Counted from the stretch's first letter, positions 20,503-55,965 are shown. The stretch: 64,000 nucleotides of DNA from Dehalococcoidia bacterium (GCA_963664725.1 OY761558.1:3007024-3071023), one strand, 5' to 3'. Notes: generated by a model not told the origin, from the letters alone. Numbers and translations are program-made.

Positions 20503-20946
20503 AGGCGGGGTGGGGTACGGTCGGGCATGGAGGACCAAGGCCAGGTAAGGCAAGGTTTAAATCAACATTCAGGCGAACATTTACTAGGCGGGGCGATGCG
20601 CGGTATGGCTGGGGGCGACAAGGTCAGGCAAGGCAGGGACTCCTAGAAAGGCACTATTACGGGTACCTTCATACTCAAGGCGGGGCGAGGTCAGGTTTGG
20701 TTGGGGGAGACAAGGTCTGGTTAGGCAGGGTTTTTTGGAAAACATCCATTCAGCTAGGCGGGGCGAGGTACTGCGAGGCTGGGGGAGTTAAGGCAAGGTG
20801 TGGCAAGGAGAGGAATTTAGGAAATAAACTTTTGACAAGGCGGGGTGAGGTAAGGCCCGGCATGGAAGCACAAGGTACGGCAGGGCAAGGTTTTACATTA
20901 ACATTCCAGCCGGGCTGGGGGAGTTAAGGCGAGGCGAGGTAAGGAC
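20503..20946 (+). repeat. Five full copies plus one partial copy of a 75-92-nt unit. Each unit is a 53-nt core of eleven 5-nt-phased NGGNN pentamers plus an A/T-rich spacer.
   Basis: Cores start at 20503, 20586, 20678, 20756 and 20838, with a partial core from 20912. They align without gaps: AGGCG GGGYG AGGTA NGGYN NGGYW KGGRR NNNCA AGGYN NGGYN NGGCA RGG. The last unit supplies the SD (AGGTAAGGAC) of gene 20951. Confidence 0.85.
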
Positions 20947-24781: not shown

Positions 24782-25760
24782 CTACCCCCTCAGTCTCCTC
24801 AGTTTACCCTCTGCAATCAACAGGTTGCCCAGCCCGAACAGCAGGGCCGTCCGTTCCGTGTTCTTTGCCAGTCCCCGGGCCAGCCCCCGGTAGCGTATTT
24901 TCCAATACCCGAACTGCCGCTTCAACCTCTGGAAGGGGTGTTCCACCTTGGCCTGCTCCGTCCGTGCCTCTTCGCTCTCCGGCTCCAGCTTCCGCCGTTT
25001 CCCAGGCCGCATCGCCACCCGCCATTCCACCGCCAATTCTAGATTCTCCTCTCGCTTGTGAACTCCCTGATACCCAGCATCTCCCCACACCACCGTCTCG
25101 CCCCCGTGCAGCAGATTGTGGGCCTCCGTGACATCGTGAGCGTTGGCCGCCGTGGTGCTCATTCTGTGGACTATTCCGGTCTCAGAGTCCACCCCAATAT
25201 GCGCCTTCATCCCGAAGTGCCACTGGTTCCCCTTCTTGGTCTGGTGCATCTCTGGGTCCCGCTCCTGGTTCCGGTTCTTGGTGGATGACGGCGCCTCGAT
25301 GATGGTGGCGTCCACAATGGTTCCTTCCCTGAGCTTCAGTCCCTGTGACTCCAGGTGGGTTGATCTCCTCCAGGAGACCCTGCCCCAGATGGTGCTGCTC
25401 CAATAGGTGGCGGAAGTGGAGGATGGTGGTCTCGCCGGGCAGCGGGCCGGTGAGCTTCAAGCCCACGAACCGCCGCACCGGATCGGACTCGTAGAGCAGA
25501 TCCTCCATGCCAGGATCACTCAGATTGTAGGAGATCTGGACGCAGTGGACTCGCAGCATAACTGGAAGGGGATAGGGATGGCGGCCCCGACCGGCCTTGG
25601 GATAGAAGGTATGGATGCGGCCTTCCAGCTTCTGCCAGGGAATCAGGCTTTCCATCCGCTCCAGGAACAACTCCCGTCTAGTCTTGCGCTTCTTCCCCCG
25701 TATTCCAAGTCGGAAAAGAGCCTGCCCTCGTGAAGACGAGGGTGGGTTGCTCCATCCCAA
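24782..25760 (-). pseudogene. IS5-family (IS5/ISL2-type) DDE transposase, frameshifted near 25320-25360
   Basis: The N-terminal ORF contains KRKTRRELFLERMESLIPWQ...YPLPVMLRVHCVQISYNLSD. The second frame contains IVDATIIEAPSSTKN...WHFGMKAHIGVD...GDAGYQG...AKVEHPFQRLKRQFGYWKIRYRGL. Confidence 0.8.
25719..25742 (-). repeat. Hairpin mini-insertion copy 1 (in IS5 tnp): CCCTCG-TCTTCA-CGAGGG-CAGGCT on the coding strand
   Basis: Read directly from the sequence. It is 24 nt and in frame, and it adds PSSSRGQA near the N-terminus. Confidence 0.7.
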
Positions 25761-25870
25761 TTCACCTCTCTACTGGTCTGGCCTGCCTCCCCTTACTATG
25801 CCATAATTACGCCAGACTTGTTCAGAGTATCCCTAACATTCTCCAAAACTTGGGAGTGGAGGTGTGCGGA

Positions 25871-26326
25871 ATGACTACTACCCTGGTGGAACTGATTGAA
25901 CGCGCCCCGTGGCGGGAAGCGGTAACCTATCGGGAGACGTGGCCCCATGAGTACGTACTGTCGGAGAGGGACGGGCAGAAAGAATTGCTGGCGGCGGTAG
26001 TGGAGCGTTTCAAAGCAGGCGAGGGGGTGGCCTGCCACTTCTTTAGCATGTACAACACCTACCTGTTCGTCGGCGACCACAAGTATTGGTTGATGGTGAA
26101 CTACAACGAGGTGGATGCCCTTGGAACAGCAGGCGACTACGTGCTGAACCGGGCCCGATTGTACCGGGACCGACGGGATTTTGTGATACAACCCGGGGAT
26201 ACGGGGATGCGGGAGGATTACAGGGGGAACGGGCGCGGGAGTGGTAGGTTACCTTGTACGCTAAGAGCGTATGGAGAAGCATACGAGCCATTTACCGAAC
26301 CCTGCCCGAATCCGGAAAATTCATAA
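25871..26326 (+). CDS. Conserved hypothetical protein (W..A.TY..TWPHEYV family)
   Basis: ATG at 25871 follows GGAGGTG: MTTTLVELIERAPWREAVTYRETWPHEYVLSE...YKYWLM... I recognise the pattern but know no function for it. Confidence 0.6.
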   Translation: MTTTLVELIERAPWREAVTYRETWPHEYVLSERDGQKELLAAVVERFKAGEGVACHFFSMYNTYLFVGDHKYWLMVNYNEVDALGTAGDYVLNRARLYRDRRDFVIQPGDTGMREDYRGNGRGSGRLPCTLRAYGEAYEPFTEPCPNPENS

Positions 26327-26339
26327 AGGAGAGAAGCAC

Positions 26340-27311
26340 ATGTCGTCTCGAGATTTGGGAACTCTGCAGCCAGTGCCGTTAAGGAACATATGGGGCCACG
26401 AAGCTCATAACTTCACTCCATGGTTAGCTGAGAATATCTCCCAATTAGCAGAGGTTATAAACATAAAGCTGGAAGCCAGCCAAAGAGAACATTGGAAGTC
26501 CGGAGAGGGTTTTGTCGATATTTTGGCCAGGGAGACCGAGTCCGACCGAACCGTCGTCATAGAGAACCAGCTTGAGATTTCCGACAACGACCATTTTCTA
26601 CGGTTGATGAGCTACGCTGCAAGTCGGAAAGCGAGCACCCTGATCTGGATAGCTTCGGAGTTTACGGAATCGCACCGTAGTATATTGTCTTGGTTGAGTG
26701 GGAGCGGAGTGGAAATTTATGCTGTTAAGGTAAGTGCCTATCGGATCGAAGATGCTTACGCTCCTTGGTTTGAAATAATTGTCAGCCCAGAAGGCGCCAC
26801 AGAAATTGCGGATGCACGCCCATACGGTGACAGTCTTTATGCGCGTTTCTACCGTCCGCTGACTGCCCTGTTGAGAATTGAAGGACTCTACGCCATTGGT
26901 GGGCGCCAAGGCGGATGGACAGGGAGGTATCGCAGGTTCCGGTCCAAGGCGCTACTGGAGACAGCCGGGATAACCTATTACACTGTCCTGGGACGAAAAA
27001 CCGAGAATTGTTCTGCAGGGCTCATGTTCCTCGGGGACCAACAACAAACCGACTTTCACGATGCCATCTTCGAATCTAAGAGTGACTTAGAAAAGGATAT
27101 GGTAGGTTTTACGGTGCAATGGGATAGAGACCCAGTACGATCCTACGTGCACTATGTGAACGTTAACAAAGTTGGTATTACCGAAGAAGGAGAAAATGCC
27201 TTGGAAGCAACAAGACATTGGATGAGGGACTCATTGCTGCGTCTTCGACAAGTATTTGAGCCTAAACTGGAAGAAATAGTCGAGTCTAGGGAGAACCCGC
27301 TTTCGGATTGA
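26340..27311 (+). CDS. PD-(D/E)XK-like nuclease N-domain plus DUF4268-like C-domain protein (paralog A)
   Basis: AAAGGAGAG RBS. Motifs: FVDILARE...VVIENQLEISDNDHFLRLMSYAA...LIWIASEFTESHRSILSWL. It is clearly homologous to 52819..53769. Confidence 0.75.
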   Translation: MSSRDLGTLQPVPLRNIWGHEAHNFTPWLAENISQLAEVINIKLEASQREHWKSGEGFVDILARETESDRTVVIENQLEISDNDHFLRLMSYAASRKASTLIWIASEFTESHRSILSWLSGSGVEIYAVKVSAYRIEDAYAPWFEIIVSPEGATEIADARPYGDSLYARFYRPLTALLRIEGLYAIGGRQGGWTGRYRRFRSKALLETAGITYYTVLGRKTENCSAGLMFLGDQQQTDFHDAIFESKSDLEKDMVGFTVQWDRDPVRSYVHYVNVNKVGITEEGENALEATRHWMRDSLLRLRQVFEPKLEEIVESRENPLSD

Positions 27312-27334
27312 ACAAGGAAGGGACTGAAACATCC

Positions 27335-27487
27335 CTAATACTACAGTCGCACATCGCATTCTTCAGGTTCAGTTGGTTCCCAGCGAATCCCGTTCGGACA
27401 GTACTTCCCGCTGGTGAGCAAAGCTGAATTCACCTGCCTTGATACACCGGAAAAGGTGAGCCCAAAATTGTGCGACTGTAGTATTAG
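27335..27487. mobile_element. 153-bp MITE-like element with 19-bp terminal inverted repeats CTAATACTACAGTCGCACA
   Basis: The left TIR is at 27335..27353 and its exact reverse complement is at 27469..27487. The internal 27361..27484 recurs inverted at 29531..29654. Confidence 0.8.
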
Positions 27488-27508
27488 CGCTTCAGCTATA
27501 CTTTACCC

Positions 27509-29398
27509 ATGGGCCTGCTTTCCAAATCCGTTACCATCTCTATGGCGTGTGTGGCCGGGGTACTTGGCGTCCTCTTCCTGTTCTCGAATGTGGTGGTTCC
27601 CCTGCTGCCTGAACAGGAGCAAAAGACCGAAACTCCCTGGAATCCTGCGGCAACCCCGGTTGCCGTTTCTTCTCAACCCACACTATTGCCTGCGCAGGCC
27701 TCCAGGCCAACGGCAACGTTACCGACTTTGCCGCCGTCTACGCAGTCCCGCGAGTCCATAGGCTTTTATTCCCTGCGAAATGCCCAGGAACTTGAGGAAG
27801 TTTCACCCGCGGCCGTCCGAGTAATCCGGGAGCTTCCATGGATTGCAGATGGTATCAGCCGGGAGGAACAATACGGAGCCGAAGCCTTGACCCATCTGTC
27901 AGCCACGCTGCCGGCAACTTTTGGGTACTTGATCGAAAAACCCTGGGTATCAACCGGAAGCCATCAAGAATTGGGCAAGGCCTTACTCGCCTTGGAAAGT
28001 ATTGGCAATGATGATCCCATTCTTGTTCAAAAGATAGTTTCTATGCCCTTTCTGGAGGAACTGGACTCGCAAGATGTGATTGCCCTGGATTCTCTGGCCT
28101 ATCTGGCCTATTCGGACTTCATCGCTTTCAGGAACATTATCAATCACCAAAGGCTTGGGGACGGTATCGATAGTGAAGAGGCAAAGATAGTGGCCGTTCT
28201 CGGGGAAGTGAACGAAATAAATCCGGACTTGACTGACATTCTGCTCGACCCCCAGCAGACTACTATCGAAGAAAGGCCAATTGGCTTGCCGTTGGCTGGG
28301 AACATCACCTTGGCTATCATCCGTACGAGGCCGGGCGCTATTCGCAGCATGGACTTGCTGGAAAGTGCCGTAAGGGGGGCAGAGTCCTTCATTGGCGAAC
28401 CATTCCCCAGCCGTTACATAGCCCTCCTGTTTGAGGAAGCCGTCCCAGGCAGTTTTGCCGGGAGCAACAACGGGGCACACATGACCATATTGCCACAATA
28501 CGACGTCGATGATCAAAGCTACGAGTCTGCCCTGGCAAACCGGGCCATAGCCCACGAGGTAGCGCATTACTATTGGCACGGAGGAGAACCCTGGCTCGAC
28601 GAGGGAGCGGCAGAATTCACCGCGACCTACGTAGAGTACCTAGCCGAGGGCAGGCCGCTTGAACCGGTCAATTACCCGTGCAGTCCCGCCAGCACAATTC
28701 GCTACCTTGAGAACAAGGGCTTTGCGGAGTCGGACCCCGCTTTTGCGTGCAACTACGCCGTTGGCGAAAGGTTCTTCCTGGACCTGTACGGAAACCTGGG
28801 AGAGGAGCAATTTCGGCGGGGTTTCCGTGACCTCTACCGGTTCGTGAAAGAAACTGATCCCTTTGGGAATAATGCAACCGGAATGGAGGAGGTCCGTACG
28901 GCCTTCGGTGACTTTCAGTCAAAAGGACCAGCCAATTCCTTTAACCCTGTGTCGCATGCGGCCGAGAGGTGGTACGAAGGGAAATTGCCAGACAGGGAGA
29001 ACCACTATGACCCTCGTCCGGCGGTGGCCGAATTGCCCACTATAAACGGTTGGATTAACCGCGCTTACGTTTCAATGACTGAAGGAGGAACGTCGGTCGA
29101 GGAAGTATCGGCATCGCATCCAGGAGCCTGGCTGTGGCTGACCTTACAGTATTCGCACGGCTATGCGGGACCTCCCCAGGAGTTGAGCTTCGAAATAGTG
29201 GAATACTACGAAGACGGCTTTCCCTACCGCCGCGATACCTTGACCATCCAGGTAGACCGCAGGTATTCCGGTGGTGTGCAGTGGATTTCCGTGGGGCCGG
29301 GGCCAGGCCAGGAATGGGCAGACGGCCGCCACTGGGTCTACGTGTACCACGAGGGCCGTAAGGTGGCCCAGGTGGAGTTTGAGGTAACGCCCCGATGA
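27509..29398 (+). CDS. Membrane-anchored gluzincin (M1-like) zinc metalloprotease
   Basis: N-terminal TM segment MACVAGVLGVLFLFSNVVVPLL, then a Pro/Thr linker. HEVAHYYWH is followed 18 aa later by WLDEGAAEF, which gives the HExxH+E signature. Confidence 0.75.
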   Translation: MGLLSKSVTISMACVAGVLGVLFLFSNVVVPLLPEQEQKTETPWNPAATPVAVSSQPTLLPAQASRPTATLPTLPPSTQSRESIGFYSLRNAQELEEVSPAAVRVIRELPWIADGISREEQYGAEALTHLSATLPATFGYLIEKPWVSTGSHQELGKALLALESIGNDDPILVQKIVSMPFLEELDSQDVIALDSLAYLAYSDFIAFRNIINHQRLGDGIDSEEAKIVAVLGEVNEINPDLTDILLDPQQTTIEERPIGLPLAGNITLAIIRTRPGAIRSMDLLESAVRGAESFIGEPFPSRYIALLFEEAVPGSFAGSNNGAHMTILPQYDVDDQSYESALANRAIAHEVAHYYWHGGEPWLDEGAAEFTATYVEYLAEGRPLEPVNYPCSPASTIRYLENKGFAESDPAFACNYAVGERFFLDLYGNLGEEQFRRGFRDLYRFVKETDPFGNNATGMEEVRTAFGDFQSKGPANSFNPVSHAAERWYEGKLPDRENHYDPRPAVAELPTINGWINRAYVSMTEGGTSVEEVSASHPGAWLWLTLQYSHGYAGPPQELSFEIVEYYEDGFPYRRDTLTIQVDRRYSGGVQWISVGPGPGQEWADGRHWVYVYHEGRKVAQVEFEVTPR

Positions 29399-29534
29399 CT
29401 TTTGACCGATGCGCCTGTGACCAAACAACCGGTACTGCGCGAGAAAGTTCAGGCCCTGGACAAGGCCGACGTAAAGACAGTAGCCGGTTGAAAGCTCCCG
29501 GGTAACAGATCCTTTAATGGACATCTTAGTACTA

Positions 29535-29654
29535 CAGTCGCACAATTTTGGGCTCACCTTTTCCGGTGTATCAAGGCAGGTGAATTCAGCTTTGCTCACC
29601 AGCGGGAAGTACTGTCCGAACGGGATTCGCTGGGAACCAACTGAACCTGAAGAA
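29535..29654. mobile_element. Second, inverted and one-end-truncated copy of the MITE
   Basis: It starts CTTAGTACTACAGTCGCACAATTTTGGG. 29531..29654 is the exact reverse complement of 27361..27484. Similarity ends after GAACCTGAAGAA, so the second TIR is missing. Confidence 0.8.
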
Positions 29655-29710
29655 AATGAAAAGGCCCTGCGGCTCGCTGGCCTACGCCGCCTGAATGTAC
29701 AAAGTCCAGC

Positions 29711-30109
29711 TTAGTAGTAGATGTACTTACTCCTGCCGTACTTGATGTACCGGCGCCTGCCGTTCCCCTTGACGACTCCTAACAATCCGATGACGGCCAT
29801 TATTATCCCCATGACCAACATCACCATTCCGCCAAACCCGATGAGCCAGTGCACGAACCACAAGTGAAGGACGAACTTCATCACGATCCCCATCACAGAG
29901 ACGGCAACGCCCGCAATCAGCAACGCCACTCCAATGATCTTGCCCACCAGGTCTCCAAAGATCACGGACGAGCCGCCGATCACCGCTGCGGCAATTCCAC
30001 CGAAGATGAACAGGTTCCCCGTCCGGTCGATGAGGGACTGCATAAGGCCCGACATGATAGATAGGCCCATCAGGGCTAGTATGACGCCCATCACCATCAA
30101 TCCGAGCAT
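29711..30109 (-). CDS. 132-aa polytopic membrane protein, unknown function
   Basis: GAGGGAG RBS. There are four Gly/Ile/Met-rich hydrophobic helices, and the C-terminus is basic (GNGRRRYIKYGRSKYIYY). Confidence 0.6.
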   Translation of the reverse strand: MLGLMVMGVILALMGLSIMSGLMQSLIDRTGNLFIFGGIAAAVIGGSSVIFGDLVGKIIGVALLIAGVAVSVMGIVMKFVLHLWFVHWLIGFGGMVMLVMGIIMAVIGLLGVVKGNGRRRYIKYGRSKYIYY

Positions 30110-30910
30110 AGTCGAACTCCCTCACAATATCGAAAAAGATTCACTCTAGTAGATCAACACAGATGTAGCGATGGGTAAAGGGACTTTAGCTTGATTCGTG
30201 CATCCTCAGTGGTGAAGCGCCATTCGACTTGGATTGCGTCTTGGTTCCGCCCTCTTTGCCAGGCTGCGGTCTCTGCCCTCAGGGTTTCTCGGTCGGGAAT
30301 GCGGCGGTCCAGGCATTGGCGTCCCAGCACCCCCAATTCTATTTCGGCCATGTTCAGCCAACTGCCGTGCTTGGGGGTATAGTGAATCTCCAGCCGCTGG
30401 GCGATGCGCTGGGCCTCGGCGGGTGCAAAGGCCTCATATAATGAACTGGGGTGATGCGTGTTCAGATTGTCCATCACCAGCACGATCCGGTCCTTGTCGG
30501 GATAGTCCTGGTCCACCAGTTGCTGGACCTGGCGCGCCCAATCGACTTTAGTCCGGCGCTCGGTCACCTCCACCCTCCGCCAGCCCTCCAGGGGCGCGAA
30601 CACCATGAACAGGTTGCTCACCCCGTTGCGCTGGTATTCGTGGTCATAGGCTTGGACCGCCCCGGGTTTCGGCGGCCGAGGCGGGCGGGTCTCCCGCACC
30701 TGCTGCTTGCTGGTCTCGTCCAGGCAGACCAGCACTTCGTTGTCCTCATATCGGCGATGATAGACCTCCAGCACGTCCTCCATGGCGCACACGAAGGCCG
30801 CGTTGCCCTGGGGCGGGATGCACCAGCATTCCTTCAGCCAGGGCTTGAGTTCGTTTTTTTTAAGGTCCGCCGCACCGTCTCGGAACTGACCCTATGGACT
30901 AACAAAACTG

Positions 30911-32299
30911 TCATGTTGCCGCGGCCTCTGATCCTTGGTGCAGTCCCGAAGTTGGAGCATCGGGGAGAGGCACCAGCTGATAGCCCAGTTGCGCCGCCCG
31001 GCGCTTGGCCGCGTGCAGCGCCCGGTCCTGATACTGCTTCTCGTAGTACTCCGCTCCGGCATCCACGTACTCCTGACCGTAACGCAGCATGGTGTAGATG
31101 AGCCTGGCCAGCTTGTGGGCGGTGGCGGTGATGGCCTTGGGCGCTCCCAGCTGCGCTTTCTTGCGGCGCAGGAAGGCGCCCAGGGCGCTGTCGGAGCGGT
31201 GCAGGGCGTTGGCCGCCAGACGCAGGGCCGCCGCCGCCCGGCTGGCACTGGGCTTGGTCTTTGAGCTGATCACCTTCCCGCCGGTGATGCGGTTGTTGGG
31301 GCTCAGCCCCAGCCAGGATGCGAAGTGCTTGGCGCTGGGCCATTTGGTCATGTCCGTGCCGACTTCGCTGACCACTTTCAAGGCCGTGAATCCGTCCACT
31401 CCGTCGATCCGGGTCAGGTCCACTCCCGTCATCCGGTATAGTTGGCCCTGGACGTCGAAGCGGGGCGCGTTCTTCTGGTTACGCTTTTTGCCGTTGGGAG
31501 CCGGAGGTTGGCCGTCGCTGTGGTCTTCAAATAGCTCCAGCTGGGCTTCAATTTCCCGGTCGCACTCGGCAATCTTATCCTGATAGAGCCGGTACAGTTC
31601 CAGGGCCTGGCTCAGCTCGAAAATGTGCTCTTCCCGCCAGTGCCCTCGCAGCGACTTGGCGATGGTCGCCTCGTCGGCCTTGATCCGTCGGTCGCGCAGT
31701 CGGGCCAGCTTTCGGGGATCCCGCTGGCCGCCCACGATGGCCTCCATGATGTCCATGCCGGTCTTGCCTGTGATGTCCCTGATCACGTGATGGAGCTTCA
31801 CGTTCATCTGGGTCAGGGCCTTCTGCATATGCTGTATATGCTGGGCTGCGTACCCCACCAGCATGGCCCGTTGCCGTAGGTAGCTGCGCAGCCGCCGGAT
31901 CTCCCCGTCGGGCCGGAAGGCTCCGGAGAGCAGTCCGTAGGTGTGCAGTTGCTGCAGCCACTGGCAATCCCGCACGTCGGTTTTGCGGCCCGGCACGTTC
32001 TTGATGCGCCGTGGGTCCACCAGCATCACCTGGAAGCCCCGCTCCTCCAGCACCCCGAACAGAGGTATCCAGTACACGCCGGTGGACTCCATGACTACCG
32101 TCTCCACCCCACACTCCTCCAGCCAGTCCGCCAAACGGTACAGGTCCGCCGTGAAAGCCTCAAACTCCTGCACCGGCTGCTCCGACCGCTCGGCGGGAAC
32201 CGCCACATAGTGGCTGCTGGCGCCCACGTCGATGCCCGCCGCGTTCAGGTTCAATGGGGACATACCTTCCGGTTTCTTGCCGCTCTTGCTGCTGCTCAT
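30911..32299 (-). CDS. IS110-family DEDD transposase/recombinase
   Basis: ATG at 32299 follows GGAGGCAACA. Motifs: LNAAGIDVGASSHYVAV...VVMESTGVYW...C-terminal GLSPNNRITGGKVISSKT...AAHKLARLIY. It appears intact at 462 aa. Confidence 0.85.
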   Translation of the reverse strand: MSSSKSGKKPEGMSPLNLNAAGIDVGASSHYVAVPAERSEQPVQEFEAFTADLYRLADWLEECGVETVVMESTGVYWIPLFGVLEERGFQVMLVDPRRIKNVPGRKTDVRDCQWLQQLHTYGLLSGAFRPDGEIRRLRSYLRQRAMLVGYAAQHIQHMQKALTQMNVKLHHVIRDITGKTGMDIMEAIVGGQRDPRKLARLRDRRIKADEATIAKSLRGHWREEHIFELSQALELYRLYQDKIAECDREIEAQLELFEDHSDGQPPAPNGKKRNQKNAPRFDVQGQLYRMTGVDLTRIDGVDGFTALKVVSEVGTDMTKWPSAKHFASWLGLSPNNRITGGKVISSKTKPSASRAAAALRLAANALHRSDSALGAFLRRKKAQLGAPKAITATAHKLARLIYTMLRYGQEYVDAGAEYYEKQYQDRALHAAKRRAAQLGYQLVPLPDAPTSGLHQGSEAAAT

Positions 32300-32558
32300 T
32301 GTTGCCTCCGCGCCTGCAAGGTGGAGGTGTCGCCGGAGGGAGACGCTAATATCGAACAATCTATGGAACGGGATCGCTCCGCTTGGAGTGTCACCAATGA
32401 TGCAGTCGCAAGTCTCCCAGACCATGCTCTCCAACGGGCAATTAGCACCAATGTCAGCTCGGTCTTGATCCGGACGGCACCCCTTATCATAAGCATACAT
32501 CCTTGGGCGGACTCACCAGTTAGTCGCCTCTGCACGGCCCGGATACGGGCATAACTCT
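32300..32558 (-). ncRNA. Candidate bridge (guide) RNA region in the 5' non-coding end of the IS110 element
   Basis: The call is by position only. IS110-group elements carry their structured guide RNA between the left end and the recombinase start. I did not fold or align the sequence. Confidence 0.3.
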
Positions 32559-33055
32559 GCTCTCCACTATCTCGCACGCAACCATCCGGTCCGCCAGCAG
32601 CTTAAGCGTCCAACTGGTCCGGCCCTCCGGTGGTTCGCTGCAGGCCAGCGCCACCAGATAGGCCTCTCCCTGACCATCCAGTCGCTTCTGCGGCCGGTTC
32701 AGTTGCTCCTTGCGCCCCAGGGCACGCTCCAGACCCTCTTCCACGCAACGCCGCCGCACCCGCTCCACCGTCGCCCTCCCCACCTTCAGGGACCGGGCTA
32801 TCTCCTCGTCCTTCATCGCCCCTTCAGCCCCGTTCTCATCGCTTAACAGCAGAATCCGGGCATGGGTCTGCCGGTAGGCTGTCGCCTTCCCCTTCGATAC
32901 CAGAGCCTTTAGTCCCTGCCGCTCCTCCTCCCCCAACTCCACCCGGTACTTCTTTACCATCACTCCCACCTCACTCCTCCAGCTTCTCTCTACTAAACCA
33001 TTCTACCCTATCCCCCATCATTGCATCTGTGTTGATCTACTAGTACCCGGTCAAG

Positions 33056-34193
33056 TTAGGAATTGATGGGATAGAGTCGATGGAGCTTGGTGCGGGCATC
33101 AAGAATGTTGAAGCGCCAGTTGATGCAGGCTTTAGCTTCGTTCCGTTCCAGTTCCAGGGCATGAATCTCCCGGCAGAGGGATTCCTCGTCGGGGAGACGC
33201 TGTCTGAGACAACTGCGGGAGAAGACGCTGAACTCGATCTCCGCCATATTCAGCCAGCTACCGTGCTTGGGCGTGTGGTGAAACTCCAGCCGTTTGGCGA
33301 TGCGTCTTGCCTCCGCTGGCGGGAAGGTCTCATAGAGGGACGCCACCCGATGGGTATTCAGGTTGTCCAAGACCAAGCGAACCACCGGCACCTCAGGGTA
33401 AGCCTGGTCTACCAGCCAGCGCATCTGGCAGGCAAAGTCCTCGGTGGTACGCCGCTGGGTCACTGCCACGTGGCGCCAACCCGCCTTGGGCTCGCAGAAC
33501 AGGAACAGGTTGCGGGTCCCCTCTCGCCGGTACTCATAATCCTCCCGCTTCGGCCTGCCAGGCTTGGTGGGAATCGGTTCTCTGACGTCCGCCAGCAACC
33601 GGGTGGAACTCTAGTCGAAACAGACCACCGGCCGCTGGGGGTCGTAGGGCTCGGCATACAGAGCCTGCCCCGTACTGGATACGGGGTCCAGCACATCCTC
33701 CATGTGGGCAACGAAGTCAGGGCTCACTTTGGGGATACACCACTCTTTCTTCTGCCACGGCTTAAGGGAGTTTTTTCAGATGCAGCCGCACCGCCTCGTG
33801 GGACAAGGACTCCACCACTCCCAACTCCACCATCCGGTCCGCCAGCAGCCGCAGATTCCAGTGGTCGTGGCCCTCTGGGGCTGGGCTGCAGGCCAGGGCG
33901 ATGAGATGGGCCTCCTCCAGGTGGTCCAGCTTCCGGTACCGGTGGGCCTGGACTCGGTCCTTCAGCGTCCCCTCCAACCCATCTTCGGCGAAACGCCGCT
34001 TGAGCCGGAACACCGTGCCTTCAGATACGTCCAAGGCCTGGGCCACCCGGGGCGCCGACCAGCCCTCGTCGATCTTGAGCAAAATGCGGGCCCGAGTGGC
34101 AACCCGGACGGAACTCTTCCCAGCCCGGACCATGTGCTCCAGTTGGTCGCGCTGCTCCGGCGTCAGCCGAACCGCAAATTTCTCCCTGACCAC
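33056..34193 (-). pseudogene. IS630-family transposase with a frameshift at an A6 run, an in-frame TAG (33611..33613) and a hairpin mini-insertion
   Basis: The HTH part is MVREKFAVRLTPEQRDQLEHMVRAGK... The DDE part contains LVLDNLNTHR...HHTPKHGSWLNMAEIEF. PVVCFD*SS stands where relatives have E. Confidence 0.8.
33662..33686 (-). repeat. Hairpin mini-insertion copy 2 (in IS630 no.2): CCCCGTA-TCCAG-TACGGGG-CAGGCT
   Basis: Removing 24 nt restores MEDVLD|LYAEPYDP, the expected IS630 sequence. Confidence 0.75.
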
Positions 34194-34282
34194 ACCATCA
34201 CCTCACAACAACACGTTCTATCAACAGATTAGCACTACCAGTCAACCACCCTTGGAACACTCAAAACAAGCTTGACAAGGTA

Positions 34283-35477
34283 CTAAACCAAAGCCAAGGT
34301 GGGATGTGCATTTGCCTGAGGTGAGGAATCGTGCTGGGAATTTAGCTGGAGTGCTTGGGCCCTTGACTGCAATACTGTCCGGCAGCGCTGTCTCACCGCG
34401 TCCTTCCGGTTGGACAGACCAGACAGGAAGTTGCCGACCCTCTCCTGCACCGCTTCCCTGGTCCCCAGGCAGAGGTTGCCGGTGGCCTCCTCTCTCGCCC
34501 AGCCCCAGATGGCCTCATCGGCATTGAAGTCCGGGCTGTAGCCCGGTAGATTCACCAACCGCAGGTCAAGTCCGGGTGTCCGCAGATATTCCCGCACCGC
34601 CTCGCCACGGTGGGCTGGCGCGTTGTCCCAGATGATCCTGAGCGGGCCAGGGTGTTTTCTCCGCAGTGGTTCTAGGAAAGTGACCGAGGTCCCGCTGTTG
34701 CTGTTGCCCTCCAGTTCCATCCATTCCACATCTCCCGTCTCCAGGCACACCGCCGAATAGTAGCTGGCCTTCTCCCCGTACCTCGGACTGTTGGAGTTCA
34801 CCAACGCCGGCTGGCCCTTCAACACGCACTTGCCCCGAAGCTCCGCGTCCGACCGGAAGTGGGCCTCATCAGCGAAGAATATCCTGGCTTCAGCCTGACC
34901 AGAATCCTCCCTCAGTGCGGCATACTCCGCCACGAAGGCCTCCCGCTTGGCTTCATCCGCCTTGAGCAACCGCTTCTTGGGCCGCTTGAAAGCAAACCCC
35001 AAGCGGTGCAGAGCCTGCCCCCGTGGAGACGGGGGTAGTTCAGGCAACTGCTGCGGCACAGGCTGATGCCGTATCGGTCCGCCGCAAACTGGTGGACCAC
35101 TTTCCAATTCCAATTGGCCAAGCCGATGCCCACGGCCTCAGGCAATTCTTGCACCGCCCCTTTCAGCGCCGCTTGTTGCGCTTCACCGAGGGTGGGGGGG
35201 AACCACCGGTCTGCTCGAAGATCAGAGCCGCGGGGCCACCGTCACCGAAGGCCGCCGCCCATCTCCCGATGGTGTGTGGGTCCCGCTCCAGCGCCCTGGC
35301 CACCGCCGAGGCGGTCCACCCCTGGGCCAGCAGCCAAACGGCATGCCAGCGTTCCCGCTCCCGAGGCGTCGGCGCCAGAATCAGCCTCCTGTGCACTTCC
35401 TTAGCACCCATTTCCCATTGTTCAAGAAACCCCTCAATCCCCCTCACACCCTTCACCATCCCTTCTCTCACCCCCAA
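34283..35477 (-). pseudogene. IS630-family transposase, multiply frameshifted
   Basis: Recognisable pieces: RERWHAVWLLAQGWTASAVARALERDPHTIGRW (HTH), LHRLGFAFKRPKK, IFFADEAHF and WDNAPAHRG...LPGYSPDFNADEAIW (DDE). Confidence 0.8.
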
Positions 35478-35544
35478 TGCTATCCCCAGTCTCTCCTCCT
35501 AATCTACCTCATCTTTCTGCACATTTCACCGTGGCTTTGGTTTA
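34284..35544 (-). mobile_element. IS630-family element no.3 (1261 bp), abutting no.2 at a shared TA
   Basis: TIRs are CTAAACCAAAGCCAAGGTGGGATGTGC (34283..34309) and GCACATTTCACCGTGGCTTTGGTTTAG (35519..35545), matching at 24/27 positions. Confidence 0.75.
35022..35045 (-). repeat. Hairpin mini-insertion copy 3 (in IS630 no.3): CCCCCG-TCTCCA-CGGGGG-CAGGCT
   Basis: Removing 23 nt joins ...SSCLNY to LHRLGFAFKRPKK in frame. Confidence 0.75.
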
Positions 35545-35602
35545 GGCTTTTATCACGGCGGTTCTGGTGGTTATTCGGGCAGCCGGCCAGGGCAACCCCA
35601 TT

Positions 35603-36854
35603 CTAATTTGCGAGGATGGAGGGCAGGTAGTCGTTGTCCTATGCGGCCAGCTTTCGCCTGGCTTTGATCGAGATTTTGGAATGCCGGTCTTGCCGGAGCA
35701 GGTTCAAGGCGGCAGGTTCAGGGCGGCGTGCCGCATTATCGCCATGTTCTCCGGTGCGTTTCCGGTCCTCACCCGGCTTTCGTCCTCCCGGAAGGACACG
35801 TCCAATACCCAATGCACCGAATACTCAATGCCCCTATGTCTTCGCGTCGCCTCCAGGAATCGCTGGGCCTCCGCTGCCAGGCTGGAGATGTAGTAACGGG
35901 ACTGCTCCGTAGTGCCGCTGTCCGTCTCACGCCGGCCCACCACCCGAATCACTGACCGCAACCCAGGCCAGTCCTGCCCAGTGCTCAGATACTCCAGGCA
36001 GGACGGGTTGCTGATCACCTGGCATTCTCTTCTTTCTATGCGCCCGTGCCCCTTGTTCAGGGTGGTGGAGTAGTCGTGGGGAACTCCCTCGTAGTCAGCT
36101 TCCTCCGCCCCCTCGAACAGGTCCCGGATGTCCTCGTACAGCCTCCCCTGGTTCTCCTTGACCGCCAGCAGATAGTTGGCCCCCCGGTCCAGGATCGTCC
36201 GGGCGATCTCTTTCTGGCAGCCCATGGCGTCGATGGTGACGATGCAACCTGACACGTCCAGTAGCTGGAGCAACTCTGGAATAGCGGTGATTTCGTTGGA
36301 CTTGGTATCGGTCCGGGTCTGGCCCAGCACCAGAGAGTTTTCCGAGGCCCAGGCACTGACCATGCGGATGGCCTCCTTACCCGACCTCCGGTCGTGGGAG
36401 CGGCACAGGGTCTTGCCGTCCACGGCAATCACCTGCCCCTGGGTCAGCCGGTGGACGCCGCTTACCCATTCCATGAAGCAGTCTCGGAAGCAGTCTCGGA
36501 AGCGGTCCGGGTCTATGCGGGCGAATACCCGGGCGAAGAGCCTGCCCCCGCGAAGGCGGGGGTGTCAGAGCAGGGGATGCCATTGGGCAACTCCAGGAAC
36601 CGGCTGAACCAGTGGACCTTGCACCGGGCGAACAACTCCACATCGTCCCATCCCTCGGCGCCTGGCACCACGGCGCAGATGGTCATGGCTATGATGTCCA
36701 GCAGATTGTGCCGCCTGCCCTGCGGCCTCCTGGGGTTCTCCAACCTGCCGAAATGCTCCACCAAGCTGATTCCCTCGTTGCCCCAGTTCCTCCCCACCCT
36801 CCCCAAACTGAATATACCCCTTGCCTCGCCCCCAGATTCTATCAGCCCCTTCAA
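35603..36854 (-). pseudogene. ISAs1-family transposase carrying a hairpin mini-insertion, a 14-nt duplication (TGAACCTG-CCGCCT-TGAACCTG near 35690..35715) and an in-frame TAG (35639..35641)
   Basis: Motifs: LENPRRPQGRRHNLLDIIAMTICAV, LPNGIPCSDT, VIAVDGKTL, TIDAMGCQKEIA, LLAVKENQ, VHWVLDVSFREDESR, then AA*DNDYL where relatives have W. Confidence 0.8.
36539..36562 (-). repeat. Hairpin mini-insertion copy 4 (in ISAs1): CCCCCGC-CTTC-GCGGGGG-CAGGCT
   Basis: Removing 23 nt restores GIPCSDT|FARVFARIDPDRF in frame. Confidence 0.75.
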
Positions 36855-38511: not shown

Positions 38512-38865
38512 AGGTCGTGCCACAGGGGAAGACAGGCCAACCAGCTATGATCTATACTCGCGGCCTATAGACTCGCCTGCCACAATTCGAAAACGGTTCT
38601 GTCTACCGTCAGGATAGGCCTACCCCGAGAACCTGGAACTCTCCGCCAGGGCGGCTTTGTCAAAACTTACAGAGCCCCCAACCACATCTCGAAGATAGTT
38701 CCACCTACCGTGCACTCAGGCCCACCACACTGGACAAAATCAAGAACTTTTCAGATCAGGTTCGTTCTGGACCTGTAGGCGCCTCTGGAAAAGACGCATC
38801 GTGTTTTATCCATTGCGAGGCCGCGATCTCCACCCCCATCTTCATCTTCCTTGTACAACAAATTC

Positions 38866-41720: not shown

Positions 41721-41864
41721 CCCTCGCTATACTCCTTGACCCCAAGTATAAACCTCAGCCAACTCATGCCACTTTCCGGCCAGAATTCTAGTGTGGTGTA
41801 ACTGAAGTTAGTTGTAATAGTGTTGGCTATGAGGTATCCTTTCGATCACCGATTGAGGAGAGGG

Positions 41865-42959
41865 ATGATCATGGTGATGGGAAGGCCAATGCCGCCGCTG
41901 ATATTGGACGACACCGAAAGGGAAACGCTGGAACGGTGGGTTCGCCGTCCCAAGACGGCCCAGGCGTTGGCGCTGCGGGCCAGGATGATTCTGGGGTGTG
42001 CCGAAGGCCGCAGCAATACCGTGGTGGGCGCCGACCTGGGAGTGTCCGATGAGACGGTGGGGAAGTGGCGTTCCCGCTTCCTGGAACGGAGGCTGGACGG
42101 ACTGTCGGACGAACCGCGCAGCGGCCGACCGCGAGCGGTCACCGATGACCACGTGGAGCGTGTGATTACGCTGACGCTGGAGACCACCCCCAGGGACGCG
42201 ACCCACTGGAGCACCCGATCCATGGCCCAGCGCAGCGGGCTGAGCCACAACACGGTCAGCCGCATCTGGCGGGCCTTCGGATTGCAGCCCCACCGCACCG
42301 AGACCTTCAAGTTGTCGGCAGACCCCTTCTTCATCGAGAAGGTCAGGGACGTGGTGGGACTCTACCTGAATCCACCGGACCGGGCGTTGGTCCTGTGCGT
42401 GGACGAGAAGTCCCAGATCCAGGCCCTGGACCGCACCCGTCCGCTATTGCCCATGCGCCCGGGACAGGTGGAACGGCGCAGCCATGATTACCTGCGCCAC
42501 GGCACCACCTCGCTGTTCGCCGCCCTGGACGCCAGGACCGGCCAGGTGATTGGCCAGTGCCACCGGCGCCACCGGGCCGTGGAGTTCCGCAAATTCCTCG
42601 ATGCCATCGAGGCCGCGGTGCCCGCCGACCTCGACATCCACCTGATTGCCGACAACTACGCCACCCACAAGACGGCGCTGATCCGGAACTGGTTGGCCAA
42701 GCGGCCCCGCTTCCATATGCACTTCACACCCACCAGCGCCTCCTGGCTGAACCTGGTGGAGCGCTGGTTCGGTCTGCTCACCGAAAAGCAGTTGCGCCGC
42801 GGCGTGCATCAGAGCAGCGCCGAACTGGAGGCTGCCATCTACCGCTACCTGGAGGTCACCAACCAGGATCCAAAACCTTTTGTCTGGACCCAGACCGCCG
42901 ACCAAATCCTGGCCAACGTCGCCCGCTTTTGCCGGCGTACTTTGGATACAGGACACTAG
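41865..42959 (+). CDS. IS630-family transposase, apparently intact (element ends not resolved)
   Basis: Uninterrupted frame from the HTH region (ETLERWVRRPKTAQALALRARMIL) to the DDE region (VLCVDEKSQIQAL...LIADNYATHK...HFTPTSASWLNLVERWF). GAGGAG lies upstream. Confidence 0.85.
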   Translation: MIMVMGRPMPPLILDDTERETLERWVRRPKTAQALALRARMILGCAEGRSNTVVGADLGVSDETVGKWRSRFLERRLDGLSDEPRSGRPRAVTDDHVERVITLTLETTPRDATHWSTRSMAQRSGLSHNTVSRIWRAFGLQPHRTETFKLSADPFFIEKVRDVVGLYLNPPDRALVLCVDEKSQIQALDRTRPLLPMRPGQVERRSHDYLRHGTTSLFAALDARTGQVIGQCHRRHRAVEFRKFLDAIEAAVPADLDIHLIADNYATHKTALIRNWLAKRPRFHMHFTPTSASWLNLVERWFGLLTEKQLRRGVHQSSAELEAAIYRYLEVTNQDPKPFVWTQTADQILANVARFCRRTLDTGH

Positions 42960-44480: not shown

Positions 44481-47400
44481 CTATGCCAGCTCCATGCATT
44501 GGTCAAGGAACTCGTTCACTTTCTTCGTGAGGCGCACCCAGTTCAGTGTTTCAAGCAACTGCCGCTTGAGGATTTCGGGGTCCGTTGTACGAGTCTCTGC
44601 CCCAATGAGTGCCAGCATTGCGGCGACTTCATCGGGTGGAAGCTCTTCCAACTCCCGGGGGCCGCGTTCTCGGAGGAAGACCTCGGGAGTGCCAGGCTCT
44701 CTCAGCACAAGCTGCTGTTGCCCTTCCTTCTTGAGTGGATTCGTAGCAATCAGCAACCCCTTTCTAATTGCTTCTGCGCAGGCTTGATTCAGCGCCTTAC
44801 GAGCCGGGGCCGTCAATCGCTGACTTCCGGATGCCCGGTTGATCAAGCGATAGGCGCGAATGGCAACCACAGGTCCTTCACGCACGGCAACGTCCGCCAA
44901 TAGAGAAACCAAGTGGTCCCTTTCAGCAATTCTTGGGTCAGGAACCAAGTCAGCCGGTTCCCATTCTACGTATCGTGCCAGGCGACCAGCACCGTCCGAA
45001 TCCGAGGGTATTGGCACCAGATGCGGCGGCGCAGATTGCGGATAGGGAGAGACCAGTTCTCCATCGTAATGAGGTCTGAATGGGCTGGAAGGGTCTCCCT
45101 GCTGCCATAGCATTTCTGACTCGATGGATTGCTGGTCGGCTTCATCATTGACAGGCGGTTCTGTCCGACTTGCCCCGTTTCGGCGCATCTCTTCTTCACT
45201 GTTGGGAAAGACCTGGCGGCGTTCAAGAGTCTTCCAAAGATCGGTCAGCGCCTCGTGGGGGTCGAGGCGGAATACTCCTTCACGGACCCGCCAGAATTCC
45301 CAGCCGCAGCGTTCCAGGTCGCGCTGGCGTGCGGCGTCCGCCTCGTAGCGGTCCGGGCCGTGCCAGGCATCACCATCACATTCCACGGCCAGGCTTCCGT
45401 CCAAACCCTGCACGACCAGATCGATTCTATAGTCCCCTACCTCCACCTGTGGGATTACCCGATACCCCCGGCGGGCGATGGCCAGAAAGATGTCCAACTC
45501 GAACCAGCTATCGAACGGCGCCGGAGGACTTACGAACTGGCGGTCAGCTTGCAAGGCCATCGCTTCAAGCTGGGGCACGTCCAGTCCTGACACATCTGAA
45601 ATCGCCACCCTGGGGTTGGAGCAGTACTCAAGGAGTTGATACCGTACGCATCTTGGATTCAGGTCTCCGAGAGTGGCGGTGTGGAAGAGATACATCTGGT
45701 CCCTGGCACGGCTTGCTGCCACATTGAATCGCCTCTGGGCCTCGTCGTCGGTCATCGCCGGGATGCGACGGTTCTCCTGGGGAGCCGAAACCAGGCTCAG
45801 GAACATGACATCGCGTTCGTCGCCCTGGAAGGCGTAGGCGTCCCCGCAAACGATCTGGCGGCGCTCCATTTCTTCGGGACCAAGCCGATTTATCAATAGC
45901 CTCTCGATCTCCCTGGCTTGAGCTTCACCCACCAGGCTGATGACGCCAAACGTCTTGTCTGCGTATGCCGAGTCTTCCTGAATTCGGGCAACCTCCGCGA
46001 TTATAGCTTCCGCTTCAGGCGGGTTCACCTGTCGCGAGCCAATTCCCCTCAGATAACCGTCGCTTACATGTCGGGTCAGGACCGTTGGCTCAAGACGCCC
46101 GGCTCCGTATTGCCGAAGCGGAACAAGCGGCTCGCCCTGATATGCCAGGTTGTTCGAAAACTGGATGATCTCGGGCATACATCTGAAATGCTCGCGCAGC
46201 CGGATCCGGCCACTGTACCGGATTTCCGCGAGATCAAAGAAACTCTGATTCACGCCGTATGCGTCGGCGTGTGGGAGGGCCGAGATATAACGTTCCCGGA
46301 GTTGGTTTACGTCCGCGAAGTTGACCCCGGCGTAGGTCGGCTGGATCTGCTTGTCGTCGCCAACAACCACGAGTTTCTTGGCCAGATAGGCAAGCAACAG
46401 TGCCTCGGGACCGGACTGGCTGGCCTCATCGATGATGGCGATGTCGAAGAGTTCAGACCCGGGTCTGATGGTCTCAGCCACACGGTGCAGCGGCATTACC
46501 CAGGCGGGTATCGCCGACCTGCTCTCGTTCATATGCTTTCGCGCATTGGCCCGATGTATCGGTGCATACTTCCCGGTGCCCCTTCCAATTGCACGCACCG
46601 CCTTTGACCAAGCGACCAAACTCTGGCGCTCTTGCTCCGTCATTCGATTGAAGCAGTGAGTCCAGGCTTTCTCAGCAGCCAGTTGTTCAAGCGCGCCGGC
46701 GATCCGGGCCCGGATATTCTCAAGTTCCATCCGCAACTGTTCCTCGGAACCAGGGGCGGATAGTCTCACCACCCAACTGTGCGCCCGGGAGCAGTTCCAA
46801 GCCCGCTCGAAATTCGATGCCCTTTCATCCCATATGGGGTCGCCAAATGTCTGTATGAGCCCTTGCGCCAGTTCCGGCGCGCCGTCCTGCAACCGGCGGA
46901 GCAGTGCTAACTTTCGGCTCAGCTGCGCATCGAGTTCGCGGTTTTCCACAGCCCGTCGCCTTGCGTCCCGGTATTTGGACGGGTCGCGCTCAATTACCGC
47001 GGCTCTCAGGTCCGCTGCGGACGCATCGATTCGCCCTCGAAGACTCTGCGTCCGTAGTTCTTCGAGGGTCCCATCAATCTCATTCCTTTCGAACTCGTAG
47101 AGGTGCGTGAATTCAATGGCGGCGACGGCATCGAATAGGTGGTCCAATGTTTTGGGGTCGGACCAGTCTGGTTCAATGCTTGTAGATGCGCGCCGGAGAA
47201 TCACGGACAATCTCCGGACCATAGCCAGCGCCGCGAATGCCTCATTTAGGGGCTCGCACAGGTCCCTGAGTTCGGCAACCTGATCCGCGAGGGTCAATGA
47301 CGCTATGCCATGATGGGGTGCCCAGCGTTCACGAATCCGCGTAAACTCTATCTCGGCCCGGAGCCGCGTCAGCAGGTCGCTCAAGGCATCGGGCGTCTCG

Positions 47401-49676: not shown

Positions 49677-49693
49677 GAATGGAAACCACTTGG

Positions 49694-49849
49694 CTAATTT
49701 CTGATGACGGTTTCCTTCCCATCCAGTCGCTTCAATTCGCGGGTCAAGGCCTGAACCACCAACTGAGTAAGGGAAATGCGAAGCCTGGCCGCTTCTGCCT
49801 TGGCCTCAGCATGGAGAGCTTCTGGGAGATTTAAGGTCGTCTTCTGCAT
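49694..49849 (-). CDS. Ribbon-helix-helix (CopG/Arc-like) protein immediately upstream of the giant helicase
   Basis: MQKTTLNLPEALHAEAKAEAARLRISLTQLVVQALTRELKRL follows the strand-helix-helix pattern. Its stop is 17 nt before the helicase start. Confidence 0.55.
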   Translation of the reverse strand: MQKTTLNLPEALHAEAKAEAARLRISLTQLVVQALTRELKRLDGKETVIRN

Positions 49850-55441: not shown

Positions 55442-55965
55442 TCTGCAACTAGTGCCTCTTATCCTGACTGCGCGGGGCAGGGGAACGCGCTGGCAGCGTT
55501 GTACAACTCTACTGATGGCGCTGAATGGTTGCACAATCATAACTGGTTGAGCAACGAACCGGTTAACAATTGGTCTGGCATTGCCGCTGATAGGGACGGT
55601 TGCGTCACCGAATTGCATCTGTTAGGGAACGGCTTGAGCGGCACAATTCCGGCGGAGTTGGGGGACCGGTCAACGCTGAAAGAGCTCTCCCTGTCCATGA
55701 ACCGATTGAGTGGAGAGATACCACAGGAACTGGGGAATCTCTCCAAGGTGGAGGAACTGTTCCTCTACGACAACTAACTTTCCGGGGAGATTCCGGTGGA
55801 GTTGGGGGACCTGTCAACGCTGAAAGAGATCTCCCTGTCCATGAACCAGTTGAGGGGGGAGATACCACAGGAACTGGGAAGTCTCACCAACCTGGAATTG
55901 TTGTATCTTCACGAGAATCAATTGAGCGGAAAGATACCAGAGGCGCTAGGCAACCAAACTGGATA
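55442..55965 (+). pseudogene. Leucine-rich-repeat (plant-type 24-aa LRR) gene remnant with an in-frame TAA (55775..55777) and a terminal frameshift
   Basis: The LRR N-cap is ALAALYNSTDGAEWLHNHNWLSNEPVNNWSGIAADRDGCVTELHL. Repeats follow: LxxNxLSGxIPxELGxLSxLKELSLSMNRLSGEIPQELGNLSKVEELFLYDN*LSGEIPVELG... There is no start codon of its own. Confidence 0.7.

Follow-up and report, generated by a model that had tools for sequence, protein, structure and literature searches.

An apparently undescribed family of ultra-small hairpin insertions in bacterial transposase genes and repeats

Four transposase genes in a 64,000-nt stretch of DNA from a Dehalococcoidia bacterium (GCA_963664725.1 OY761558.1:3007024-3071023; the whole stretch is called the window below) each contain a small hairpin followed by the hexamer CAGGCT. 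This unit is an insertion made at the DNA level and defined by its structure: its ends are exact, it duplicates no target sequence, it takes one base of the target into its hairpin and it has a liking for hairpin loops. The window is one local sample of a widespread family of ultra-small insertions across many bacterial phyla. Searches of the literature by sequence, signature peptides and keywords, with most subscription journals outside their coverage, found no description of the family. It is apparently undescribed, with a prior description possible in the journals not covered. As a kind of element it belongs to the tagged palindromic mini-repeats, an already known kind of which it is a new variant.

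A hairpin family with an invariant tail

The element reads 5'-CCC..(stem)..loop..(stem)..GGG(G)-CAGGCT-3' and comes in two size classes, one of 24 nt (type A) with a 5-nt loop of the TCRRG type (TCAAG, TCGAG; TCCAG also occurs) and one of 23 nt (type B) with a 4-nt loop of the YTNC type (CTTC, CTGC, TTTC). All four copies in the window (Table 1; each coordinate pair gives the first C of the stem and the T that closes CAGGCT) have perfect 7-bp stems and loops of 4-5 nt, with A before and CT after. A preliminary description of this DNA had reported four inserts of this make, each followed by CT, in four minus-strand transposase genes, and all were confirmed. Its coordinates hold for copies 1, 2 and 4 and are 10 nt off for copy 3 (35035..35012, not 35045..35022), and the stems that it gave as 6-7 bp are all 7 bp. 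The window was scanned with exact and relaxed descriptors. The octamer CAGGCTCT occurs 8 times against 2.9 expected, a count reached in 0 of 100 shuffles, and a perfect 7-bp hairpin precedes it solely at the four minus-strand occurrences. Allowing one stem and one tail mismatch added just two imperfect matches, where Markov simulations gave 0-4. The four copies are beyond chance, and the rest of the window has nothing similar that exceeds the chance level. Folded as single-stranded DNA (ssDNA), their hairpins have energies of -7.6 to -9.7 kcal/mol (z = -3.0 to -5.0). No Rfam family reached its gathering score anywhere in the window, where a 25-nt hairpin would score low anyway, and the plasmid and phage collections held no close relative of the window region.

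A collection of genomes was scanned with the pattern ACCCCSKN{6,7}MSGGGGCAGGCTNT, giving at least 128 matches, and metagenomes were scanned without flank constraints, giving at least 131. Perfect pairing at the three stem positions that the genome pattern does not force was found in 115 of the 128 listed matches (chance 1/16, p ~1e-122), the pairs at these positions being GC/CG, GC/TA and AT/CG/TA/GC, respectively. In the metagenome scan 109 of the 131 listed matches were perfectly paired. The CAGGCT tail, in contrast to the stem, is invariant in all 270 copies and always lies 3' of the hairpin (AGCCTG 5' of it on the opposite strand). This is a real, evolving family held together by its hairpin structure and an invariant unpaired tag, and the earlier idea of REP-like inserted mini-elements with compensated stem changes and a constant tail is borne out (REP, repetitive extragenic palindrome).

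Among the listed matches the hosts include many metagenome-assembled genomes (MAGs) of Dehalococcoidia and other Chloroflexota; Entotheonella, Binatia and Acidimicrobiales; Alpha-, Gamma- and Deltaproteobacteria; Bradyrhizobium, Xanthobacteraceae, Nitrobacter, Luteimonas, Stenotrophomonas, Dyella, Sphingomonas and Nitrosomonadales; and Bacteroidota, Planctomycetota, Acidobacteriota, Terracidiphilus and Fibrobacter. On plasmids the element is rare: one perfect type-A copy lies in a transposase fragment of S. meliloti, and two Sphingomonas plasmids have one near-perfect and one perfect type-B copy. The phage collection contained no copy of the element.

Some hairpins with a CCCCG(T/G)ATCAAGT(A/C)CGGGG core carry another 3' tail (e.g. 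TGAC..), at 3200-3290 of locus L090 and in plasmid hits H29-H45 (Sphingobium, Novosphingobium), and other tag classes may share this hairpin. Local tandem duplications that include the element were also seen (L007 80-153; L110 430-480; L094), with a 46-nt unit present twice and partial duplications of 14 nt and of 7 nt of the 5' arm; they suggest slippage at the hairpin.

Filled and empty sites

Taking 24 nt out of copy 2, or 23 nt out of each of the other three, with the first stem C kept, yields family-typical proteins, as the preliminary description had proposed for three of the four. With the insert removed, the Pfam match to HTH_33 is continuous over the junction of IS630 no.3, and so is DDE_Tnp_1_assoc over that of ISAs1. 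In IS5 the junction lies outside the Pfam match, and removal gives the N-terminus MEQPTFSDLEY, as in related IS5 copies of locus L032; we take this start to match the N-terminus of E. coli IS5 as well. The IS5 copies of L032 are filled at the same site as window copy 1. Two frame-breaking and two in-frame inserts had been counted originally; by length there are three of 23 nt (IS5, IS630 no.3, ISAs1) and one of 24 nt (IS630 no.2), and the reading PSSSRGQA of the IS5 copy arises only through a 1-nt indel about 10 codons downstream together with a different start.

Most IS630 and ISAs1 homologues are free of the insert. At the site of IS630 no.2, 115 of 120 homologues read VLD|LY (a bar marks the junction), three (P0012, P0117, P0092) have a recognisable 8-residue insert and two (P0019, P0096) look like frame-shifted versions of it; an insert identical to copy 2 occupies the same site in L001 and L003. 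About 105 homologues of ISAs1 are empty, reading HDT|FSRVF, and five other lineages of 47-57% identity are filled, reading HDT-PAFAGAGS; in the insert-bearing ISAs1 of MAG OZ240206.1 the site reads GACAC-CCCCGCTTTCGCGGGGGCAGGCT-CTTC. Across all retrieved DNA, reconstruction of the empty site gave 72 gapless alignments to homologues that lack the insert, with identities of 80-95%. One of these comparisons sets the reconstructed site of IS630 no.3 against an IS630 homologue in L106 (gapless, 81.9% over 204 nt) and reveals a reciprocal pair: in the window copy the Y|L site is occupied and the N|L site vacant, and in the homologue it is the other way round.

The boundaries follow from two junctions, AAC|...|ATG (L003) and GCC|...|GTGG (L002). 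As these cannot slide, they fix the insertion as CCC...GGGG-CAGGCT; the outermost C of the stem comes from the target, and no base is duplicated or missing. No target-site duplication was found at any junction examined, and the foot G pairs with the 5' C in 260 of 263 hairpin-bearing copies. Where no pattern constrained the flanks, A or C stands before the shared C, position +1 is Y in 95 of 102 cases and position +2 is T in 67 of 102; the A that the window copies show at -2 is common, but the pattern of the genome scan imposed it. The target reads C|YT, often AC|CT, and the AC|CT junctions first noted in the window hold there. Compared with matched controls, empty sites have slightly more structure, the AC lying unpaired between flanks that pair.

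Two further ideas about the target were rejected. One was a guide role, in which the variable stem-loop of each copy would resemble its right flank (e.g. CTTCGCGGGGG versus CTTCGCCCGGG in ISAs1); against it, the same sites also carry other types of stem, and the types seen most often lie at unrelated sites. Apparent site-specific subtypes are mostly accounted for by inheritance with the host insertion sequence (IS).

Host genes and repeats

A preference for IS genes had been proposed, and it is borne out in part: about half, some 19-20 of 38 copies, at Chloroflexota and sponge-type MAG loci lie in open reading frames (ORFs) of transposase families (DDE_Tnp_1, DDE_3, DDE_5, IS66). Single transposase genes can hold 3-5 copies (L032, L016, L203), and the IS share is inflated by hitch-hiking on multiplying IS. 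The other places include repeats, the element itself and ordinary genes. In Rhizobiales a long hairpin repeat takes up the element at a single point of its apical loop (CCAC|TTTT); among the loci examined this repeat was empty 12 times and filled 30 times. At L008, L024, L065 and L068 the hairpins whose loop it occupies agree with the CGTC-tagged REPs (Di Nocera et al. 2013, PMC3733652), and at L016 and L039 it is nested in itself, in the loop of a copy on the opposite strand. The ordinary genes are TrmB, two DnaG-like primases and a 1331-aa histidine kinase, and here only 24-nt copies are found (5/5), with in-frame read-through.

One arrangement does not follow the simple insertion rule. A composite unit, ..ACTGGATTC-[element]-TAGTCAAGCCCGGAAT.., is conserved across many soil and sediment metagenome contigs (L144, L160, L171, L176, L201, L205, L224, L229, L232); in it the element seems to break the 5' arm of a reverse-oriented CGTC-type hairpin, with about 3 nt (GGG) apparently replaced by TAG.

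The window is uninformative on orientation because all four host IS share one strand. About 16 distinct sense sites in IS genes face 6 antisense ones. Antisense copies are clear in L034, where an IS66 gene has two, and in L032, where an IS630 gene has one, and the single orientation relative to the transposase that had been suggested does not hold as a rule.

The reading frames tell something of how hosts live with the insert. Among the 120 IS630 homologues, 11 have PVSSTGQA in frame at no fewer than (at least) 5 sites, one of them right after the catalytic LDN motif. In L245 (14x contig) a 6-A run and a 23-nt copy at KP|W combine to give an intact 356-aa IS630 ORF, which reads LKKRPQA-PVLQRGRL-WQKREW in place of the canonical LKKNxLKPWQK; this suggests that selection kept the transposase open with the insert in place. 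Judged from these frames, the insert is translated in long intact ORFs and not removed. At 1046-1090 of L246 (2x contig) an ISAs1 has an extra C about 10 codons after its 23-nt insert that restores the frame (PAFAGAGSSVRFSPGWI, then the canonical PERFQECF), whether by compensatory mutation or as an assembly error at low coverage. We also considered the 23-nt class as a programmed -1 frameshift cassette built of a C5 run and a hairpin; here the hairpin contains the would-be slip site, which leaves no downstream stimulator, and the idea was left unproven.

Insert-bearing IS have moved recently. A 1244-bp ISAs1 with a 23-nt insert occurs at two loci of one MAG with 99.84% identity, and one of these copies sits in a paralogue of 75% identity that is itself interrupted by the same insert; interrupted IS thus still transpose, either in trans or by some recoding. 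Three IS630 copies with a 24-nt insert are likewise 99.4-99.6% identical. In a Dehalococcoidia MAG (L081 1823-4228) an ISAs1 is nested in an ISAs1 and two inverted IS630 of 99% identity lie 1.2 kb apart, which points to very recent IS activity.

Within the window itself the inserts are passengers among degraded IS copies, whose closest DNA relatives are in Dehalococcoidia, Binatia and other long-read MAGs. The IS5 gene, also matched by DDE_Tnp_1 in window ORFs and by plasmid BLAST matches annotated IS5, has a 1-nt indel about 10 codons 3' of the insert and a frameshift near EEINPP/HLESQG. IS630 no.2 is broken by a 6-A run at LKK/NSLKPW and by an in-frame TAG at VVCFD*SS, and the frame of IS630 no.3 changes again near GGSPP. 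The A-run has 6 A in IS630 no.2 against 8 implied by single-ORF homologues that read LKKNxLKPW; a run at the same place shifts the frame in several IS630 copies (L245 10320-10345 among them) and could be a hypermutable or slippage site.

Table 1. Copies of the element, their host genes and insert-free IS genes in the window
Feature	Position	Strand	Details
Copy 1, type B (4-nt loop)	25742..25719	minus	CCCTCGT-cttc-ACGAGGG-CAGGCT, within IS5 gene
Copy 1, inserted DNA	25741..25719	minus	23 nt; C at 25742 is the target's; junction CCCAC|CTTTTCC
Copy 2, type A (5-nt loop)	33686..33662	minus	CCCCGTA-tccag-TACGGGG-CAGGCT, within IS630 no.2 gene
Copy 2, inserted DNA	33685..33662	minus	24 nt, in frame, read PVSSTGQA; junction GAC|CTG (D|L)
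Copy 3, type B	35035..35012	minus	CCCCCGT-ctcc-ACGGGGG-CAGGCT, within IS630 no.3 gene
Copy 3, inserted DNA	35034..35012	minus	23 nt, frame-breaking; junction TAC|CTG (Y|L)
Copy 4, type B	36562..36539	minus	CCCCCGC-cttc-GCGGGGG-CAGGCT, within ISAs1 gene
Copy 4, inserted DNA	36561..36539	minus	23 nt, frame-breaking; junction GACAC|CTTC (HDT|F motif)
Host 1, IS5-family transposase pseudogene	24782..25790	minus	translations; DUF772 match on reconstructed N-terminal part
Host 2, IS630-family transposase (no.2) pseudogene	33056..34193	minus	homologues are single ORFs of 371-374 aa
Host 3, second, unrelated IS630-family transposase (no.3)	34283..35477	minus	HTH_33 and DDE_3 (Pfam)
Host 4, ISAs1-family transposase gene	35704..36854	minus	C-terminal region also disrupted
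Comparison, intact IS630-family transposase (379 aa) without insert	41820..42959	plus	
Comparison, partial IS630 no.1 without insert	30154-30792	minus	
Comparison, IS110 without insert	30911-32500	minus	

The neighbourhood holds some features of its own. A 1774-aa ORF (44484-49805, minus strand) joins AAA_11/AAA_12 helicase domains to an MTES_1575 restriction-endonuclease domain, and type I restriction-modification genes (N6_Mtase, HsdM_N, HSDR_N) lie near it, so that the IS cluster stands in a defence-island-like region; the insert-bearing IS630 of L245 is likewise inside a type I restriction-modification locus. At 20503-20890 there are five G-rich units of about 53 nt (AGGCGGGGCGAGG...AAGG), spaced 78-92 nt and 66-81% alike, which are not a CRISPR-like exact repeat. 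A 144-nt tandem duplication of 79% identity lies at 55646-55933, and a 55-nt segment adjoining it (55953-56007) recurs 17 kb off (38724-38778) with 75% identity.

Kinship and possible mechanism

The element works like REPs and Rickettsia palindromic elements (RPEs), yet it lacks the tags and the architecture by which the GTAG and CGTC classes of REPs are defined. With the REPs and their REP-associated tyrosine transposases (RAYTs) it shares a short GC-rich palindrome of high copy number with a co-varying stem, an unpaired tag of constant sequence at one hairpin foot, non-autonomy, insertion without target duplication and other mobile DNA nesting in or near it. The REPs, in contrast, have GTAG (GTGG/GTAA) at their 5' foot, where the element's tag in REP orientation is AGCCTG; they are extragenic and form REPIN or BIME dimers, whereas the element is a singleton with about half of its Chloroflexota-type copies inside ORFs. 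It is also shorter (23-24 nt), with exact ends, and no RAYT gene flanked by copies was found in ~1 Mb of flanks.

CGTC REPs and the elements RPE-4 and RPE-6 resemble it in their 4- or 5-nt loops and in having no known associated transposase. They also share its occurrence in Alphaproteobacteria and several phyla, and in some members an identical apical hairpin, CCGGA-CTTGA-TCCGG; RPEs share in-frame insertion into protein genes, which the element does in TrmB, DnaG-like, kinase and IS630 ORFs. By definition, however, CGTC REPs have a CGTC (TGTC/CCTC) tag, an 8-9-bp stem starting AT and a CCA tail (PMC3733652), whereas the element's stem is 7 bp with a CCCC/GGGG foot and its tail is CAGGCT, with no CGTC tag, AT start or CCA. 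CGTC REPs are mostly head-to-head dimers and serve here as hosts, with the element in their loops, and the element's sequence is absent from the text and supplements of PMC3733652.

Yeast mitochondrial GC clusters and byps are likewise tiny GC-rich palindromic mobile inserts in protein genes, but they are eukaryotic and organellar, and byps are skipped by the ribosome whereas the element is translated. [quoted passage not shown] With the ends of IS200/IS605 and the palindrome-associated transposable elements (PATEs) it has in common the lack of inverted terminal repeats and of duplication, and seamless insertion 3' of a short target that is kept at the left end; it would also share hairpin recognition on a single strand, for which this target is needed. 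Elements derived from IS200/IS605 have two subterminal hairpins and a minimum of about 90 nt. Their target is a defined tetra- or pentanucleotide and both ends bear hairpins with guide sequences, whereas the element has one hairpin, and neither a lagging-strand bias like theirs nor, in ~1 Mb of flanks, a TnpA was found. It is outside the definitions of MITEs and of IS200/IS605 derivatives.

Taken together, our results lead us to favour, with moderate confidence, a non-autonomous, ultra-small, REP/RPE-like mobile element that is moved in trans on ssDNA. Most plausibly the mobilising enzyme reads a folded single strand and is of the HUH/Y1 kind, because the co-varying hairpin, the invariant unpaired tag and the retained flanking target base resemble REP and IS200/IS605 substrates. 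Working as on REPs or the ends of IS200/IS605, such an enzyme would make one cut 3' of the flanking C and another 3' of CAGGCT, possibly releasing a dumbbell circle of 23-24 nt, and would paste the element into exposed single-stranded C|YT sites. The insertion itself takes place directly 3' of a C with no target bases gained or lost, this C becoming part of the outermost stem pair. Copies are tolerated where they are harmless (IS genes, REP-like repeats) or where 24 nt add eight in-frame residues, and are then carried along as the host IS multiplies.

Several observations weigh against this mechanism. The preliminary description had named a Y1 TnpA or RAYT as a possible mover; the mobile hairpin element stands, and no Y1 (IS200/IS605 or RAYT) gene was found by tblastn in ~1 Mb around 148 copies, nothing scoring below E = 0.6 (the queries were approximate sequences of IS608 TnpA, ISDra2 TnpA and E. 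coli RAYT). No candidate enzyme was linked to the element in any locus examined. A strict IS608-like mechanism on the lagging-strand template predicts a strand bias, and none was seen relative to local GC skew (92 versus 99), for which the 4-8-kb skew used is a weak proxy. The element has a single hairpin, while IS200/IS605 ends and REPINs use two. Nearly all of the 270 copies, at 236 loci, are singletons with no fixed-spacing doublets among them, and a search for tail-less 'left ends' of a longer master element and for REPIN-like doublets found none; both scans give lower bounds on the matches, not a genome-wide census or a copy number. Finally, the same few sites recur with near-identical inserts in IS lineages that are just 47-75% identical, which requires either a stronger target specificity than C|YT or long-lived insert-bearing IS.

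The same mini-element could be moved by another DNA mechanism, namely a recombinase acting on folded DNA, as the integrases of integrons do on attC, IS91/Helitron-like rolling circle transposition by an enzyme that uses a 3' subterminal hairpin, or templated repair or reverse transcription from an abundant small hairpin nucleic acid. We regard this as possible but unlikely. It would agree with the finding of neither a Y1 gene near the copies nor a GC-skew strand bias, and the near-identical sequence across phyla could mean a widely shared host enzyme. The termini of Helitrons and IS91 have a single hairpin at a fixed distance from the 3' end and no target duplication, and the element's lone hairpin, 6 nt from its 3' end, fits this too. 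Rolling circle elements, however, vary in length and their 5' end is of a distinct kind, whereas this element is always 23 or 24 nt long and exact at both ends, and no candidate gene is linked in this case either, an RVT_1 gene being near one locus only (L001).

A third view denies the element any mobility of its own and makes it an old native segment of some IS or repeat lineages, spread by the transposition of its hosts, horizontal transfer and gene conversion. The constancy of site and subtype within IS families (PVSSTGQA at VLD|L, PAFAGAGS at HDT|F, GTTCTGCAAC at KP|W) speaks for it, as does the clear hitch-hiking on host IS. The same 25-mer, however, lies in at least 4 IS families, in REPs and in housekeeping genes of many phyla; its presence among close homologues is patchy and not clade-wise; and the reciprocally filled and empty pair of IS, together with copies nested in copies, makes this origin improbable.

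Still less probable is a signal at the RNA level, the hairpin plus CAGGCU being excised from the mRNA or bypassed in it as a mini-intron or translational hop, as the preliminary description had also considered. The recent movement of an ISAs1 with a frame-breaking 23-nt insert, the 75%-identical paralogue with the same insert and both half-ORFs intact, and the prevailing sense orientation in IS genes (~16 versus 6) would be in its favour. It conflicts, however, with the antisense copies in IS66 and IS630 genes, with the many copies within untranslated repeats and with the restriction of ordinary genes to 24-nt in-frame copies. No take-off/landing codon pairs were seen and Rfam gave no match, and removal of the 23-nt insert of L245 would destroy an intact ORF that needs it. 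Least credible of all is a host defence in which the cell writes hairpins into transposase genes to silence IS, an idea that had also been raised: about 50% of the copies in Chloroflexota-type loci are within transposase ORFs, some IS genes have several copies and 23-nt copies break the frame, but most IS630 inserts are in frame with intact ORFs, insert-bearing IS still multiply, one insert restores an ORF, copies are also found in TrmB, DnaG-like and kinase genes and REP-type repeats, and the at least 4 unrelated transposase families share no feature that a host could recognise beyond short C|YT sites.

Returning to movement in trans on ssDNA, there is a fair chance that the element is a distinct superfamily with its own enzyme. 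One may go further, and tentatively, to speculate that it is a cross-phylum superfamily of the smallest known mobile DNA (23-24 nt) and a third tag class beside GTAG and CGTC REPs. Its members would move as single hairpins, perhaps through ssDNA dumbbell minicircles, by an enzyme as yet linked to no repeat, parasitising IS genes and REP loops, writing PVSSTGQA or PGSSPGQA cassettes into proteins and occasionally patching transposase frames.

For genome annotation, the element splits or pads gene calls in many genomes. It is the source of PVSSTGQA, PAFAGAGS, ACPGLDPG and PAPDLIRG in predicted proteins, and it marks IS pseudogenes and produces false 'frameshifted transposase' annotations; it could also mark insertion history. 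If our reading is correct, a unit of 23-24 nt whose ends are exact would lower the minimum size of mobile DNA, and a single 7-bp hairpin, one flanking C and a 6-nt tag would be a minimal enzyme substrate, one that makes the spread of tagged palindromic repeats directly testable with oligonucleotides. It would be a selfish element that lives mainly inside other such elements and sometimes changes the reading frames of their transposases.

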